Assembly (NCBI GenBank): GCA_965601925.1
Contig: OZ271854.1
Span: 2,272,001 to 2,336,000 of the forward strand
DNA: 64,000 nt
Source: Alkalispirochaeta sp.
GTDB lineage: Bacteria; Spirochaetota; Spirochaetia; DSM-27196; Alkalispirochaetaceae
Reading direction: 5' to 3'
A program made the position numbers and the translations under genes. Below the pieces are notes generated by a model that had not been told where the DNA came from, made no database searches, and worked only from the letters and a program-made list of their open reading frames with translations. How positions within the stretch are numbered: position 1 is the stretch's first letter; every line of letters starts with the position of its first letter. This document shows positions 996-7,814 of this stretch, in pieces.

Positions 996-3311
996 TCACG
1001 CTCCCCGTATCGACGTCGTCGACCTCAGTAAAGAGGCTCGCAAACGCTGCGCCGCGGCGACCATATTTTGGAGGGACGGACGTACTTCGTCCCATTGCCG
1101 CGTTTTGAGCCCGCAATCCGGATTGACCCACAGTCGCTCGGGTGGGACGTGCTCTGCGGCGCGTTCCATTAACGCCACAATCGACTCCACCTCGGGTACG
1201 TTGGGGCTGTGGATATCGTAGACGCCCGGTCCGATCTCGTTCGGATACGCAAAGTCGGCGAAGGCCTCCAGGAGTTCCATGTCGGAGCGCGACGTCTCGA
1301 TTGTGATGACGTCGGCGTCGAGCGCCGCGATCGAGTCTATGATATCGTTGAACTCCGAGTAGCACATGTGTGTATGGATCTGCGTCTCGTCACGGACACC
1401 GGTCGTCGCGAGACGAAACGCGCGAATCGCCCACTCGAGGTAGCTCCGATGATCCGCCCTGCGTAGCGGCAGGCCCTCGCGAAACGCCGGCTCGTCGACC
1501 TGAATGACGCCTACTCCCGCCCTCTGCAGGTCACCGACCTCGTCGCGCAATGCGAGGGCGATCTGCAATGCCGTTTTTTCGCGACTTTGATCGTCACGCA
1601 CGAAGCTCCATTGGAGAATGGTAATCGGGCCGGTTAGCATTCCCTTCACGGGCTTCTCGGTGAGCGAGGCGGCGTAGGTGGTCCAGCCCACCGTCATCGC
1701 CTCGGGACGATCCACATCGCCGTAAATAATGGGCGGTTTCACACACCGGCTGCCGTAGGACTGCACCCACCCGTACTCGGTGAATGCAAAGCCGCCGAGC
1801 TTGTGTCCGAAGTATTCGACCATATCGGTACGTTCCGCCTCGCCGTGCACCAGGACGTCGAGTCCTATCTCTTCCTGCTCGTGAATGACGTGCGCGATCT
1901 CCCGCTTCATAGCGTCGGAGTACCCTATATCGTCTAGTTCACCCGTTCGCCACGCCTTTCGCGCGCGGCGGATCTCGTCGGTTTGGGGAAACGATCCGAT
2001 TGTCGTCGTGGGATAGGGCGGGAGATCGATGTGCTCGCGCTGTCTCTCCGCGCGCGTGCGGTACGGCGAGTCGCGTCGCGTCATGTCGGACGTGATGCGC
2101 GCCAAACGGGCCTCTACGGCTCCATTGTTGCGCAGCGGCGAGGCGCCTCGCGCCGCAACCACTCGATCGCTCTCGGCGAGCTGAGCGGCGACCGTCTCCC
2201 GACCGTCGTTGAGGGCCCGCTTGAGGATCGACAACTCATCGAGTTTCTGGACGGCAAAGGCGAGCCACGAGGCGATGTCCACGTCGAGAGACTTCTCGCT
2301 TCCCGTGTCGTAGGGAACGTGGAGAAGGCTGCAACTCGGCGCGAGCCACAGCCGGTCACCGAGCGTTGCGTGAAGCGGCTCGAGACGGTCGACGAGCGCC
2401 GAGAGGTCCGCCCGCCAGATGTTGCGCCCCTCGATCACTCCCAGACTTAGTATCGCGTCGCCCGGTAGTTCGGAAACGGCGCGCGCGATCCCCTCGGCGC
2501 CTCGGACGGCGTCTATGTGATATCCGGCCACCGGCAGTCGGGCGACGAGCGGTAGATTATCGCCGAGCGGGCCGAAGTAACTTGTCAGCAGAATCTTGGG
2601 ACCCGCCGCCGCGAGTCCGTCGTAGGCGCGAGTAAACAGATCACGCCATCGGCCGTCAACATCCTGTGCGAGAATCGGCTCGTCCACCTGTATCCATTCG
2701 ACGCCGCGCTCGGCTAGCATAGTGAGGAGTTCGCCGTACAGCGGTACGAATCGATCGAGGAGTGTCGCCGTATCCACCGCACTCTTCGCCTTGCCGAGAC
2801 GTAGATAGCTGACGGGGCCCAGGAGCACCGGTTTTACTCGCCCTCCTACGACGGCGGTCGCCTCTTCGATCTTTCGGAGATACGTATCGGCGGACAGGTG
2901 TGGTCGATCCGCGTGATCGAACTCGGGAACGAGGTAATGGTAGTTGGTATCGAACCATTTGGTCATTTCTGCCGCGTGAATCGGTTCGCCCGTTGCCGAT
3001 CGCCCTCGCGCCGAACGAAAGTATGTGTCAACGGGCGCCTCTTGATTCATGCGAGTATCGTACGCTCGGCGCGGTAGATGGCCGAGGAGTTCGCTCGTAT
3101 CGAGTACGTGATCGTAAAGTGCGAAATCGCCCGCAGGAATGAGGTCGAGTTGCGCGTCACGCTGCAACGCGAGGTTAGCGCGATGAACCTCGGTTGCCGA
3201 GCGCATGAACGCGTCGCGATCGATTCTTCCGTTCCAGTACCGCTCGGCGGCAAATTTGAGCTCGCGGTGAGCTCCGATTCTCGGGAAACCCAGATTATGC
3301 GTCCGTACCAT
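996..3311 (-). CDS. metE: Cobalamin-independent methionine synthase
   Basis: [56 protein letters not shown]; start taken at ATG 3311. Confidence 0.98.
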
Positions 3312-3380
3312 AGTATGACAATACCGAGTACTATGCATTCAGAAAATTGAAAAATTCTTATAGTATGATAAATTTAATTT

Positions 3381-4271
3381 ATGATTGAGCGTGTACACTT
3401 GGAAATACTCAACTCCCTCGCCGAGGAAGGAACGCTTACCCGAACGGCGCAAGCGCTTTACAGAACGCAACCCGCCGTGACGCACGCAATACGCCGACTG
3501 GAGGACGCCGTCGGTGCACCGGTCTGGCGCCGGGCGGGACGGCGCGTCGCCTTGACCCCGGTGGGCGAGTATCTGACCGGGGAGGCTCAACGTATCCTCG
3601 CGGATCTTCGACGTGTGGAGGAACACGCCGCCGCGCTTGCCGCGGGGCGACGCGGAGTGCTGCGCATCGGAGTGGAGTGTCATCCGTGCTTTCATTGGTT
3701 GACCGGAGTAGTGCGCCCTTATCTGGAACGCCGCCCCGGGGTTGAAGTAGATGTGGTGCAGGAGTACCGATTCGCCGGCTACGACGCCCTTGTGAGTCGG
3801 CGCATTGATGTGCTCATTACTCCCGATCCACGCGTCGACCGGCGGTTCGAGACCATTCCGGTGCTCTCGTACGAACTCGTGCTCGGCGTATCGCGGTTCC
3901 ACCCATTTGCGCAGGCGCCCTGCGTCCTCCCGGAGGATATCGCGGAGGAGACCTTATATACCTATCCGGTGGAGCGCGCGCGCCTCGACATCTTTACGCA
4001 GTTTTTCGGTCCCGCCGGCGTCGAGCCGGTAGCGGTAAAAGAGATAGAGGCGACCGAGATTATGGTGCAACTCGTCTCCGCCTCCCGAGGTGTATGCGCG
4101 TTGCCCGATTGGCTCTTCCGAAAAGGCGCCCTCGCCGGAGAGCTATCGCGTGTTCGATTAGGGCCCGGCGGTATCGCGAAACAACTCTGCCTGGTGATAC
4201 GCGTAGAGGACGCGGATTGCGAGTATCTGGCCGACTTCGTCGAGAGTTCCAAGGGCTCACAGGGCGAATGA
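3381..4271 (+). CDS. metR: LysR-family regulator MetR
   Basis: LysR HTH (TQPAVTHAIRRLE), MetR-typical LRIGVECHPCFHWL and YPVERARLDIF; divergent from metE. Confidence 0.9.
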   Translation: MIERVHLEILNSLAEEGTLTRTAQALYRTQPAVTHAIRRLEDAVGAPVWRRAGRRVALTPVGEYLTGEAQRILADLRRVEEHAAALAAGRRGVLRIGVECHPCFHWLTGVVRPYLERRPGVEVDVVQEYRFAGYDALVSRRIDVLITPDPRVDRRFETIPVLSYELVLGVSRFHPFAQAPCVLPEDIAEETLYTYPVERARLDIFTQFFGPAGVEPVAVKEIEATEIMVQLVSASRGVCALPDWLFRKGALAGELSRVRLGPGGIAKQLCLVIRVEDADCEYLADFVESSKGSQGE

Positions 4272-4391: not shown

Positions 4392-4407
4392 ACACTATAT
4401 ATAGTGG
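4392..4407. promoter_or_regulatory. NrdR box
   Basis: ACACTATATATAGTGG matches the NrdR consensus acaCwAtATaTwGtg; lies between the promoter and nrdD. Confidence 0.88.
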
Positions 4408-4515
4408 TAAAACCGATGCTCGTGCATACGCCCCGACGTAGCATAACGCGGCTTCTCCGGGAGGGGTTGCTCGTATTTGACGACAGTTCAGGCGATCTCA
4501 ACTGGGAGGGGAACT

Positions 4516-6618
4516 ATGACCGGAGTACCGCGTTATGTCGAAAAACGCGACGGACGGCTCGAGCACTACTCGAGGTCTGCGATTACCGAGGCGATGCGTA
4601 AGGCGTATTGCGCAGTCTATCCGGATCGAGAAGTTCCGGAGATAACCCTGGTGTTACTCACCGATCAGGTGGAACGACGGCTCGAAGCGGTTATCGCCGA
4701 CGATACCGCAGGAGTGAGTGAGCCCCCGCAGTCCGTGCGTACCGGCTCTGAACGCGACGGCGCGACCGCTCCGTCGATCGAGACCATCCAGGACATCGTC
4801 GAGGAGACGCTTATGGCCTCCGGCGAGAGCGCGGTAGCCCGTTCATACATCATCTATCGTGCCCGGCGTGAGGCGGTTCGCGATACCCGCGCACTCATGG
4901 TGGACATCGACAAGACGATGGATGGGTATCTCTCAATGTCCGATTGGCGCGTCAATGAGAACGCCAACGTCAACTTTTCTCTCGGTGGATTGATTCTCCA
5001 CAACTCCGGCACCATTACCGCCAATTACTGGCTCAAGAACATCTACTCGCCGGAGGTTGCCGAGGCGCACCGGAGCGCCGCGTTTCATATTCACGACCTT
5101 TCGATGTTTTCGGGGTATTGTGCCGGATGGAGCTTGCGGCAGCTCATCGAAGAGGGACTCGGCGGTGTGCGGGACAAGATCACCTCAAAGCCGGCCGAAC
5201 ACCTTTCCACCCTTGTGCAGCAGATGGTCAATTTTCTGGGCATCATGCAGAACGAGTGGGCGGGGGCGCAGGCGTTTTCCAGCTTCGACACCTACCTTGC
5301 ACCGTTCGTCCGAGAGGATGCGCTCGCCTATCATGAGGTTAAACAGGCGATCCAGTCCTTCGTCTTCGGCGTCAACACGCCGAGCCGTTGGGGAAGTCAG
5401 GCGCCTTTTACCAATATCACCCTCGACTGGGTCGTACCGGTAGATCTTCGGGAGCGTCCGGCGATTGTCGGCGGTCGTGAGATGTCCTACACCTACGGCG
5501 ATCTTCAGGCGGAGATGGATCTCGTCAACCGCGCCTTTCTGGAGTTGATGATCGCCGGCGATGCCGACGGGCGCGGCTTTCAATATCCGATTCCCACCTA
5601 CAACATTACTCGGGAGTTCGACTGGGAGAGCCCTAACGCCGAGCTCCTCTTCGAGATGACTTCTCGCTACGGGACGCCGTACTTTCAGAATTTCATCAAC
5701 TCCGATCTCGACCCCTCCGACGTGCGTAGCATGTGCTGCCGCCTGCAGCTCGACAAGCGAGAGCTGCGTAAGCGCGGGGGTGGGCTCTTCGGGAGCGACG
5801 AGTTTACCGGGAGCATCGGTGTGGTAACGATCAACATGCCGCGGATCGGGTATCTGTCGCGGACCCGGGAGGAGTTTTTCGCATCTCTCGACAGACTCAT
5901 GGACCTTGCCGCGGAGTCTTTGACGACCAAGCGCAAGGTGATTACCCGGCTGTTGGACGCCGGCCTCTTCCCCTATACGCGACGCTATCTCAAACACCTC
6001 GACAACCACTTCAACACGATCGGCCTGGTGGGTATGAATGAGGCGCTTTTGAACTTTCTCGGCGAGGATATCTTGTCGGAGAAGGGGCGTGTCATGGCCC
6101 TGGAGATCCTCGATCATATGCGGGGCCGCATCGCCGACTATCAGGAGCGCACCGGCGAGCTGTTCAATCTGGAGGCGACGCCCGCGGAGAGCACAAGCTA
6201 CCGGCTGGCGCGGCACGACCGTGAGCGCTACGCCGACATCGTGACCGGCGGCACCGCCGAGTCGCCGTACTACACCAACTCGAGTCAGCTCCCCGTCGGA
6301 TACACGAGCGACATCTTCGACGCTCTGGACCTCCAGGATGCGCTGCAGACGCGCTACACCGGTGGTACGGTGTTTCACTCTTTTTTGGGCGAGGCGGTCG
6401 AGGATTGGCGCGCCGCCCGCAGTTTGGTGCGCGCGATCGCGACCAACTATCGGCTTCCGTACTTCACCGTGAGTCCCACCTTCAGCGTCTGCCCGGTGCA
6501 CGGATACATTCGCGGCGAACACTACACGTGTCCGAAGTGCGCGGAGGAGGAGCGGGAACGGCTTCGTGCGGAGATCCGGTCCCTGGAAGAGGAACGCGCA
6601 TCGGTCGGCGATCGATAA
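4516..6618 (+). CDS. nrdD: Class III (anaerobic) ribonucleotide reductase large subunit, with ATP cone, lacking the C-terminal glycyl-radical motif
   Basis: SD GGGAGG before ATG 4516; VEKRDGRLE ATP cone, HIHDL, YCAGW, RSMCCRL, NLEATPAES, CPVHG..CPKC; no RxxGY motif. Confidence 0.96.
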   Translation: MTGVPRYVEKRDGRLEHYSRSAITEAMRKAYCAVYPDREVPEITLVLLTDQVERRLEAVIADDTAGVSEPPQSVRTGSERDGATAPSIETIQDIVEETLMASGESAVARSYIIYRARREAVRDTRALMVDIDKTMDGYLSMSDWRVNENANVNFSLGGLILHNSGTITANYWLKNIYSPEVAEAHRSAAFHIHDLSMFSGYCAGWSLRQLIEEGLGGVRDKITSKPAEHLSTLVQQMVNFLGIMQNEWAGAQAFSSFDTYLAPFVREDALAYHEVKQAIQSFVFGVNTPSRWGSQAPFTNITLDWVVPVDLRERPAIVGGREMSYTYGDLQAEMDLVNRAFLELMIAGDADGRGFQYPIPTYNITREFDWESPNAELLFEMTSRYGTPYFQNFINSDLDPSDVRSMCCRLQLDKRELRKRGGGLFGSDEFTGSIGVVTINMPRIGYLSRTREEFFASLDRLMDLAAESLTTKRKVITRLLDAGLFPYTRRYLKHLDNHFNTIGLVGMNEALLNFLGEDILSEKGRVMALEILDHMRGRIADYQERTGELFNLEATPAESTSYRLARHDRERYADIVTGGTAESPYYTNSSQLPVGYTSDIFDALDLQDALQTRYTGGTVFHSFLGEAVEDWRAARSLVRAIATNYRLPYFTVSPTFSVCPVHGYIRGEHYTCPKCAEEERERLRAEIRSLEEERASVGDR

Positions 6619-6651
6619 GGCGATAGTATACAGCACCACAGGGAGGGAGTT

Positions 6652-7137
6652 ATGAGAACCGTTACCGAGATCGACACGGAAATCGAGGCCAAACGGGCGG
6701 CGTTACGCGCGGTAACGGGCCGCGAAACCGAGGTCTATTCGCGAATCGTCGGGTACTATCGGAGCTTGCGAAACTGGAATGTCGGCAAGAAGGCCGAGTT
6801 CGGCGAGCGGAAGACCTACGACGCCGCCGCGTCTCTCGCGCGGCGCGAGGAGCCGTCGCAAGAGCGCAACCATCCTGCGACGCCCGCCGCGTTCCAGCTC
6901 TTCACCCGTGCCCATTGTCCGGGGTGTACCGCGGCGAAGATACTCATCGACACGTTGCCCGAGTTAGCGCCGCGCGTCCGTGAGATCGACGTCGACTCAG
7001 AGGACGGGATGCGTCGCGCCGAGGTAGCGCTGATCGCCGTAACACCGACGCTCATCGCACGCGATGAGTCCGGCGGGGAGTTGTGGCGGAGCACCGACCC
7101 GCTCCACATGCGCGATCTTTTCGCTGCCGGCGGGTGA
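6652..7137 (+). CDS. NrdD glycyl-radical domain fused to a CPGC glutaredoxin/thioredoxin-like domain
   Basis: Own SD (GGGAGGGAG); TEVYSRIVGYYRSLRNWNVGKKAEFGERK is the NrdD C-terminal motif; then LFTRAHCPGC...VTPTLI redoxin pattern. Confidence 0.9.
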   Translation: MRTVTEIDTEIEAKRAALRAVTGRETEVYSRIVGYYRSLRNWNVGKKAEFGERKTYDAAASLARREEPSQERNHPATPAAFQLFTRAHCPGCTAAKILIDTLPELAPRVREIDVDSEDGMRRAEVALIAVTPTLIARDESGGELWRSTDPLHMRDLFAAGG

Positions 7138-7814
7138 TTACGCATGTCGGACTCGTGAAAACGAGTCTCGTCGACGTGCCGGGGCGCCTCGCCGCGACAC
7201 TGTTTACCCACGGATGTCCGTTATCGTGCCCGTACTGTCACAACGAGCGCTTGCGGTCCGGCCCGATTCCCGACGAGTTCGTTACGGTCACCGAGGCGGT
7301 GGCCTTCTTAGCCGGACGCGCGGGAATCGTGGAGGCGGTGTGCGTTACCGGGGGCGAACCGCTGATGCACACCGATCTCGCCGATCTCCTCGGCGCGGTA
7401 CGTTCATTGGGATACTACGTCAAGCTCGATACCTCGGGAGCGTATCCCGAGCGATTGCAGGAGCTTTTGTCCCATGGATTGGTAGATATGGTCGCCCTCG
7501 ACATCAAGACGAGTCCTCGGCGGTACCGTGACGTGGGACTCGACGGCCAAACGTTTCTCGACGCGCTCTCCGCGGTGCGCCGCTCCGGCGTGCCGTACGA
7601 GCTGCGAACTACCGTTGCACCCGAGGTCGTCCGTCTCGAGGATATCGAGGACATTGTAGGGCTTGTGGAACCGGGTGAACCGCACGTTCTCGCGCAGTAC
7701 CGTCGTCCCGACGCTCCGGGGAATCATCCGCAACCGTATCCGGCCGGCGTTCTACGGGAGTGGCTGGCGTCGGCACGCGAGAAGAACGGCGCCGCGACGG
7801 TGCGTGGTATATAG
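7134..7814 (+). CDS. nrdG: Anaerobic RNR activating enzyme (radical SAM)
   Basis: GTG start overlapping the upstream TGA; SLVDVPG, GCPLSCPYCHN, VCVTGGEP, VKLDTSG, YELRTT. Confidence 0.95.
   Translation: MITHVGLVKTSLVDVPGRLAATLFTHGCPLSCPYCHNERLRSGPIPDEFVTVTEAVAFLAGRAGIVEAVCVTGGEPLMHTDLADLLGAVRSLGYYVKLDTSGAYPERLQELLSHGLVDMVALDIKTSPRRYRDVGLDGQTFLDALSAVRRSGVPYELRTTVAPEVVRLEDIEDIVGLVEPGEPHVLAQYRRPDAPGNHPQPYPAGVLREWLASAREKNGAATVRGI

Follow-up and report, generated by a model that had tools for sequence, protein, structure and literature searches.

Does a class III ribonucleotide reductase (RNR) gene that stops short of its glycyl radical loop encode a damaged enzyme, or one chain of two? This question is raised by a locus in the window, by which we mean the whole 64,000-nucleotide stretch analyzed here (Alkalispirochaeta sp., assembly GCA_965601925.1, contig OZ271854.1, positions 2,272,001 to 2,336,000 of the forward strand). 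Reading of open reading frames (ORFs) and family searches gave the operon order NrdD core, 161-aa ORF and nrdG, with the glycyl loop on the 161-aa ORF. We conclude that the locus probably encodes a class III RNR in two chains, a 700-residue core and a 161-residue chain that joins the glycyl loop to a redoxin, likely docked through a coiled coil. The original prediction, made from this DNA alone, of a two-gene class III RNR with its putative radical site on a redoxin-fused small chain thus describes a real and conserved arrangement.

Sequence features of the two chains

The core ORF scored well above the family cut-offs (NF006126/PRK08270, 1068.5 bits against 548; TIGR02487, 470.1 against 326.35). 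It runs from an ATG at 4516 to a TAA at 6616-6618, and its C-terminus reads CPVHG...CPKC-AEEERERLRAEIRSLEEERASVGDR, so that, as first noticed, the stop falls just past the CPKC of the zinc site and a charged helix. The zinc site lies wholly on the large chain (C659, H662, C672, C675). The next ORF has its own strong Shine-Dalgarno sequence (SD), an N-terminal helix, the SRIVGYYR loop and a CPGC redoxin domain, all as originally described. The two ORFs share one frame with the TAA as the sole stop between them, and the 33-nt gap from the core stop to the small gene's ATG at 6652 holds the SD. The Pfam NRDD model was tiled without overlap over both ORFs, with positions 1-531 on the large ORF and the remainder, 532-562, on the small ORF. 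Next in the operon, the third ORF encodes an activase of the NrdG2 type (TIGR02495, 174.9 bits against a cut-off of 131.15), which likely starts at the GTG at 7134 and overlaps the small gene's TGA (7135-7137). By sequence, the locus therefore has what defines a class III RNR, namely a barrel above the family cut-off, the finger-loop cysteine, the zinc site, and a Gly loop with NrdG; the loop, which ends the catalytic chain of a canonical one-chain NrdD, is instead on a second gene. The genome has a single NrdD-type Gly loop. In the core, an insertion of some 25 residues rich in Pro, Ser and Thr (window 4690-4775) breaks the ATP-cone into two Pfam stretches.

A search for small-chain homologues of similar length yielded 57 proteins among 611 candidates, of which 50 were aligned (alignment A1) and 7 with partial cover were omitted. 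C89, C92 and P132 were invariant in all 50 rows. The thioredoxin match by sequence alone was weak (Pfam, 20.5 bits, under the cut-off), and the Foldseek matches of the domain were thioredoxins (best E 6.6e-5). The fold, the CxxC at a helix start and the conserved proline together identify a thioredoxin-fold redoxin. One 255-aa protein, P0017, a single member, runs from the helix through the Gly loop and redoxin into the beginning of an NrdG-like domain; it may represent either a genuine fusion with the activase or a frameshift.

Table 1. Features of the class III RNR locus in window coordinates
Feature	Position	Strand	Basis
NrdR box (ACACTATATATAGTGG)	4392..4407	+	5' of operon; genome's only match to the strict box pattern
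NrdD core, 700 aa: ATP-cone, catalytic barrel, Zn site, C-terminal helix; without glycyl loop	4516..6618	+	NF006126/PRK08270; Pfam NRDD 1-531 of 562; ATP-cone
Finger-loop MCCR, residues 406-409	5731..5742	+	Double-cysteine type as in PMC9669993
Glu553 of NLEATPAE	6172..6174	+	Aligned with Glu of T. maritima NIEQVPAE
Zn site C659-x2-H662 ... C672-x2-C675	6490..6540	+	Invariant in 63/63 rows of alignment A2
C-terminal heptad helix of core, charged, 25 residues long, predicted docking helix 1	6541..6615	+	Heptads in 62/62 loci
Ribosome-binding site of small gene (strong SD gggagggag)	6637..6651	+	Sequence; similar SDs at related loci
Small chain, 161 aa: helix, glycyl loop, linker, thioredoxin-fold domain	6652..7137	+	ORF, Pfam, alignment, AlphaFold2, Foldseek
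N-terminal heptad helix, residues 4-20, predicted docking helix 2	6661..6711	+	AlphaFold2 helix, pLDDT (predicted local distance difference test) ~85; heptads in 62 loci
Gly34 of YSRIVGYYR, predicted glycyl radical site	6751..6753	+	Invariant in 50/50 rows of A1; matches C-terminal end of NrdD models
Thioredoxin-fold domain, residues 80-160	6889..7131	+	pLDDT >90 over most; CPGC at 6916-6927; Pro132
NrdG activase, radical SAM (S-adenosylmethionine)	7134..7814	+	TIGR02495 above cut-off

Conservation of the split and unlinked genes in genus g18

Confirmation of the TAA in sequencing data had been proposed with the original prediction, and the codon was unchanged in contigs from three of four public runs (the full stretch is spanned in X1 and X2, X3 has a 245-base piece across the codon, and X4 does not cover it). 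Because all runs come from one sample, possibly the window's own source, conservation is better evidence for the TAA than these contigs.

Of 582 loci found in species genomes, almost all with spirochaete titles, the locus survey covered the best 80. Among these best 80, 72 loci were split, 1 was one-chain and 7, which lacked an upstream part, were left unassigned; the ranking favours the helix-bearing form, and the counts are therefore not a frequency. The split point and its flanking helices are kept in other spirochaetes, with heptads on both sides in 62 loci, in answer to a check proposed with the original prediction. The intergenic gaps of related split loci ranged from -4 to several hundred bases. 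Judged from these comparisons, the split is old and conserved, and is no sequencing error.

These data bear directly on the rival view that the TAA is an error or a recent nonsense change, or that it is read through into one chain. The shared frame with its single stop would fit this view, as would the one-chain NrdDs of the same genus. However, only 24 of the 72 split loci have both genes in one frame and 48 have them out of frame, and the two genes are unlinked in the genus described next. In addition, the small gene has its own SD and Met, stand-alone 161-aa homologues exist at 77% identity, and the stop is flanked by 25 + 22 extra residues that are absent in ordinary one-chain NrdDs. We consider this view extremely improbable; the frame and distance data refute it.

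In four single-contig genomes of the genus labelled g18, the core and small genes lie 95, 133, 509 and 602 kb apart. All five g18 cores (L135-L139) have retained MCCR as well as the tail helix, none has a Gly loop in its locus, and they stand upstream of genes that we take to be HflK/HflC-like. The seven small genes (L115, L140-L145) keep the helix, encode 82-98 aa without a redoxin, and are the first gene of an operon with nrdG; each has its own NrdR-like box (7/7), whereas no such box was found within 300 bases of any of the five cores. Because core and small gene are unlinked there, the two chains must, as far as gene arrangement tells, act in trans, although the g18 genomes are close kin and represent one event.

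The separate, apparently NrdR-controlled g18 operon of small chain and nrdG is one of several observations in favour of a further idea, raised in part by the original prediction, that the small chain is a replaceable spare part, swapped after oxygen cuts the chain at Gly34 so that the core is saved. Another is the precedent of YfiD/GrcA for pyruvate formate-lyase (PFL), likewise a small glycyl-loop protein acting in trans in a glycyl-radical barrel, as described in PMC8683613. Formate lyases are the only glycyl radical enzyme class with known spare parts according to the 2026 review PMC13450708, which treats class III RNRs without depth. At least two Gly-loop matches occur in 25 of 151 matching genomes (hand count, one contig break excluded), and at locus L110, upstream of 3472, the small gene is duplicated in tandem, the full copy following one of 96 aa that has the helix and loop and no redoxin. 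On the other side, the window has one copy, placed within the operon, and 43 of 43 helix-plus-redoxin genomes have a single match among the matches listed, the multi-copy genomes being of other types. After a cut at Gly34, the helix stub would presumably stay docked and the redoxin would come free, and one-chain forms are nested repeatedly among split ones. YfiD, moreover, rescues a damaged full-length enzyme that has its own Gly loop, whereas the core here never has one, which makes the small chain obligatory. We therefore regard a spare-part role as unlikely.

Across the phylum sample, 151 of 301 genomes had a Gly-loop match. Types were counted by hand among the 150 matches listed (42 others are unlisted): 43 were separate helix-loop-redoxin ORFs, 3 were one-chain with redoxin, 9 were helix-loop without redoxin, 3 were interrupted by contig ends, and 92 had the loop only, 10 of these within long frames. 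A split core lay upstream in all 11 short loop-only loci fetched. Other spirochaete classes contain a second split type (L116-L119 and L124-L130), in which the Zn site ends in CPxPH or CPYDH, not CxxC, and the small ORF encodes 50-63 aa; several of these genomes have 2-4 loop copies.

Split NrdDs also occur in betaproteobacterial plasmids, as a 57-aa 'nrdD' in Sulfuricystis and a 58-aa 'hypothetical' protein in Ralstonia; 'nrdD' is the RefSeq label of one such small gene. These plasmid forms and the 50-63-aa spirochaete ORFs have the same cut as here, with the Zn site on one side and the Gly loop on the other, and the small gene is 5' of nrdG in both plasmids. They differ in that their small chains lack the heptad helix and the redoxin, belong to different NrdD lineages and are annotated as pieces. 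We found no description of them as two-chain enzymes in the literature searched.

Predicted helix docking and probable history of the split

Docking by a coiled coil, part of the original prediction, gained support from heptads on both chains, from natural one-chain hairpin forms and from a confident model of one of them. Past the last Zn ligand, the core tail is hydrophobic at +8, +12 and +15 in 62 of 62 loci, with Leu at +15 in all 62. Before the Tyr of the Gly loop, the small chain is hydrophobic at -8, -11, -15, -18, -22 and -25 in 87, 95, 58, 100, 95 and 79% of the 62 loci, respectively; the window's own chain carries Lys at -15. In 95 of 120 long homologues, only 6 residues without helices separate the last Zn ligand from the Gly-loop strand. 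With such spacing in ordinary NrdDs, the start of helix 1 would lie beside the end of helix 2, which points to an antiparallel pair.

Two natural one-chain proteins, P0084 with 5 cluster members and P0085 with 2, have both helices joined by a short turn. AlphaFold2 placed helices at 679-703 and 708-727 of P0085 around a 4-residue turn (pLDDT 93-97), and the model matches class III RNR structures; it was read for secondary structure and pLDDT only. Alignment A4 misplaced split-chain fragments around the hairpin, and these gave no covariation there. Helix remnants of 11-32 residues stand beside P0085 in one clade with a support of 99. Together, the heptads, the spacing and the modelled hairpin suggest that an antiparallel coiled coil likely holds the small chain on the core. 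A further candidate, P0083, has the helix within a long protein and lacks the second half of the Zn site; it looks like a frameshift join and was not counted.

To place these forms, we used a tree of 88 cores from a quick LG+G4 search over 445 columns, rooted on two betaproteobacterial sequences and containing many open forks; the set was an earlier one of 85 rows minus 25 (the bad row L087, near-duplicates and thinning) plus 28 proteins. One branch, with a Shimodaira-Hasegawa-like approximate likelihood-ratio test (SH-aLRT) support of 95, united every one of the 39 helix-type splits with 8 forms that have a hairpin or a helix remnant. It also contained 14 plain one-chain fusions of NrdD and redoxin, and groups outside it include more one-chain fusions. 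P0084 was sister to a split locus (support 99), and the P0085 clade (99) showed links of 48, 32, 28, 17, 11 and 6 residues. One-chain NrdDs with a C-terminal redoxin, of about 790 aa, are common (P0132-P0202; named members from Clostridia, Erysipelotrichaceae and Tyzzerella).

From the tree, the redoxin fusion appears older than the split. The simplest reading is that a one-chain NrdD-redoxin fusion was cut once in this lineage just past the Zn site and acquired the helices, after which repeated re-fusions with helix decay would have followed. Since one-chain NrdDs already carried the redoxin, the packaging of radical storage and reductant in one subunit, stressed in the original prediction, follows from where the cut fell.

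The alternation of split and one-chain forms among close relatives, together with the rejection of all helix-bearing rows as one clade in the approximately unbiased (AU) test (p-AU 1.6e-85), would also fit a tolerated, near-neutral gene fission, in which a stable heterodimer behaves as one chain with no special benefit. However, the same junction is cut in separate NrdD lineages whose flanks are unrelated, and a single clade of all splits was likewise rejected (p-AU 4.4e-42; for both tests the groups were set by architecture, though the tree had already been seen), which suggests repeated origin or long retention. The dedicated helices are also conserved across the class. Near-neutral fission is thus possible, though we lean against it.

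Probable reductant, proposed mechanism and relation to known enzymes

The original prediction took MCCR and ATPAE as marks of redoxin- rather than formate-dependent enzymes. The NrdD of P. copri has ATPAE as well; the residue that carries the information is the immediately preceding Glu, since NLE-ATPAE aligns with NIE-QVPAE of T. maritima. We presume this position, Glu553, to be that of the proton-donor Glu of thioredoxin-using NrdDs, in which case the core has both marks of a thioredoxin-using NrdD2, the second finger-loop Cys and the aligned Glu. A finger loop without Met would indicate sole thioredoxin use, and here the Met is present. The claim was overstated, as MCCR enzymes have parts for either formate or thioredoxin according to PMC9669993 (Burnim 2022). 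Thioredoxin and NrdH are listed among known class III reductants in Table 1 of PMC9176816, and a family search found a thioredoxin reductase above cut-off in the genome.

The retained Met of MCCR leaves room for a two-chain enzyme that uses formate, with the redoxin employed elsewhere, in reduction of Zn-site or NrdG cysteines or in repair. A PFL-like Gly-loop motif in the genome and the loss of the redoxin in g18 and in three one-chain relatives would be in line with this. We find it doubtful, given the second finger-loop Cys and Glu553 and given that many one-chain NrdDs, both Clostridia-like and from spirochaetes, have a fused redoxin.

For the two-chain, redoxin-served enzyme that we favour, the last helix of the core would pair with the first helix of the small chain in place of the 6-residue covalent link. 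NrdG would install the radical on Gly34, and the glycyl loop would then enter the active site of the core, as in one-chain enzymes. The tethered CxxC domain could re-reduce the active-site disulfide formed by the MCCR cysteine, and could itself be recharged by thioredoxin reductase or a similar partner.

Several observations weigh against this proposal. The MCCR motif also fits formate use (PMC9669993), and g18 has retained the split without the redoxin (9 genomes). The hairpin was modelled for a relative rather than for the window's pair, from an alignment 1-13 rows deep at that place. Recombination could mimic re-fusion in a quick tree with open forks. All three genomes with a Gly-loop match among 16 of the same genus are one-chain, as are 10 of 19 such genomes among 40 relatives (9 split, 7 one-chain with redoxin and 3 one-chain without). 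The same-genus counts partly bear out the scenario of fused relatives and a recent TAA that had been named as fatal to the original prediction; however, the same-genus NrdDs are not the closest homologues of the window core in the tree, and the 77% identical stand-alone homologues speak against a recent stop.

All six conserved positions of an NrdR box (C4, A6, A8, T9, T11 and G13), as named in PMC13584703, are present at 4392-4407, and no second box at the usual spacing was seen by eye nearby. A promoter scan found 1 site against 1.2 expected and none between core and small gene, and a stem resembling a terminator at 4448-4470, against 2.5 expected, was given no weight. By motif only, the genome has a PFL-like Gly-loop gene and a class II RNR gene, the latter a 787-aa frame with NPCGE near 1463430 of G000:C1; given this likely class II RNR, the cell might be able to do without its class III system. 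The window region 996-4271, 5' of the operon, encodes what we take to be a MetE-like methionine synthase and a divergent LysR/MetR-like regulator, and a pair resembling a PIN-type toxin-antitoxin lies at 345-963.

Every class III structure matched is a single chain. The one-chain double-cysteine type (T. maritima 4COI/4U3E; N. bacilliformis; NF006126/PRK08270) shares the barrel, finger-loop cysteines, Glu before PAE, Zn site, Gly loop and activase with the present enzyme, which differs in its separate Gly-loop chain, two added junction helices and fused redoxin. The split class II RNR NrdJa/NrdJb of P. aeruginosa also has a catalytic and a C-terminal chain (PMC9669993); NrdJb, however, has IscU-like and Zn-finger domains and no stored radical. 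Split phage nrdD genes are reported in PMC3653736 in connection with introns, inteins and homing endonucleases. In the full-text literature searched, supplements aside, we found no description of a class III RNR whose glycyl loop sits on a subunit of its own, or of this redoxin fusion, although Wei et al. 2014 and RNRdb may mention such forms, nor, in the literature searched, of a one-chain NrdD with a C-terminal redoxin. What appears new is the support that natural hairpin fusions lend to coiled-coil docking, together with the unlinked and apparently separately regulated genes and the suggested order of events.

Class I RNRs also keep their radical on a separate small subunit (PMC9669993); the fold and cofactor are unrelated, and the analogy is functional only. 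By that logic, the small chain might tentatively be viewed as an exchangeable radical subunit, separately regulated, charged by NrdG, provided with its own reductant, clipped on and off, and replaced after oxygen damage, which would be a first for an anaerobic RNR.

A two-chain enzyme would make radical installation, transfer and re-reduction separable for study, as the small chain could be activated alone, mixed with wild-type or mutant cores and exchanged. Questions such as how NrdG reaches the buried loop, how electrons travel from a protein reductant to the double-cysteine site and whether the enzyme can be repaired after oxygen would become testable. Many annotations as 'truncated NrdD' and 'hypothetical protein' would then represent intact two-chain enzymes.

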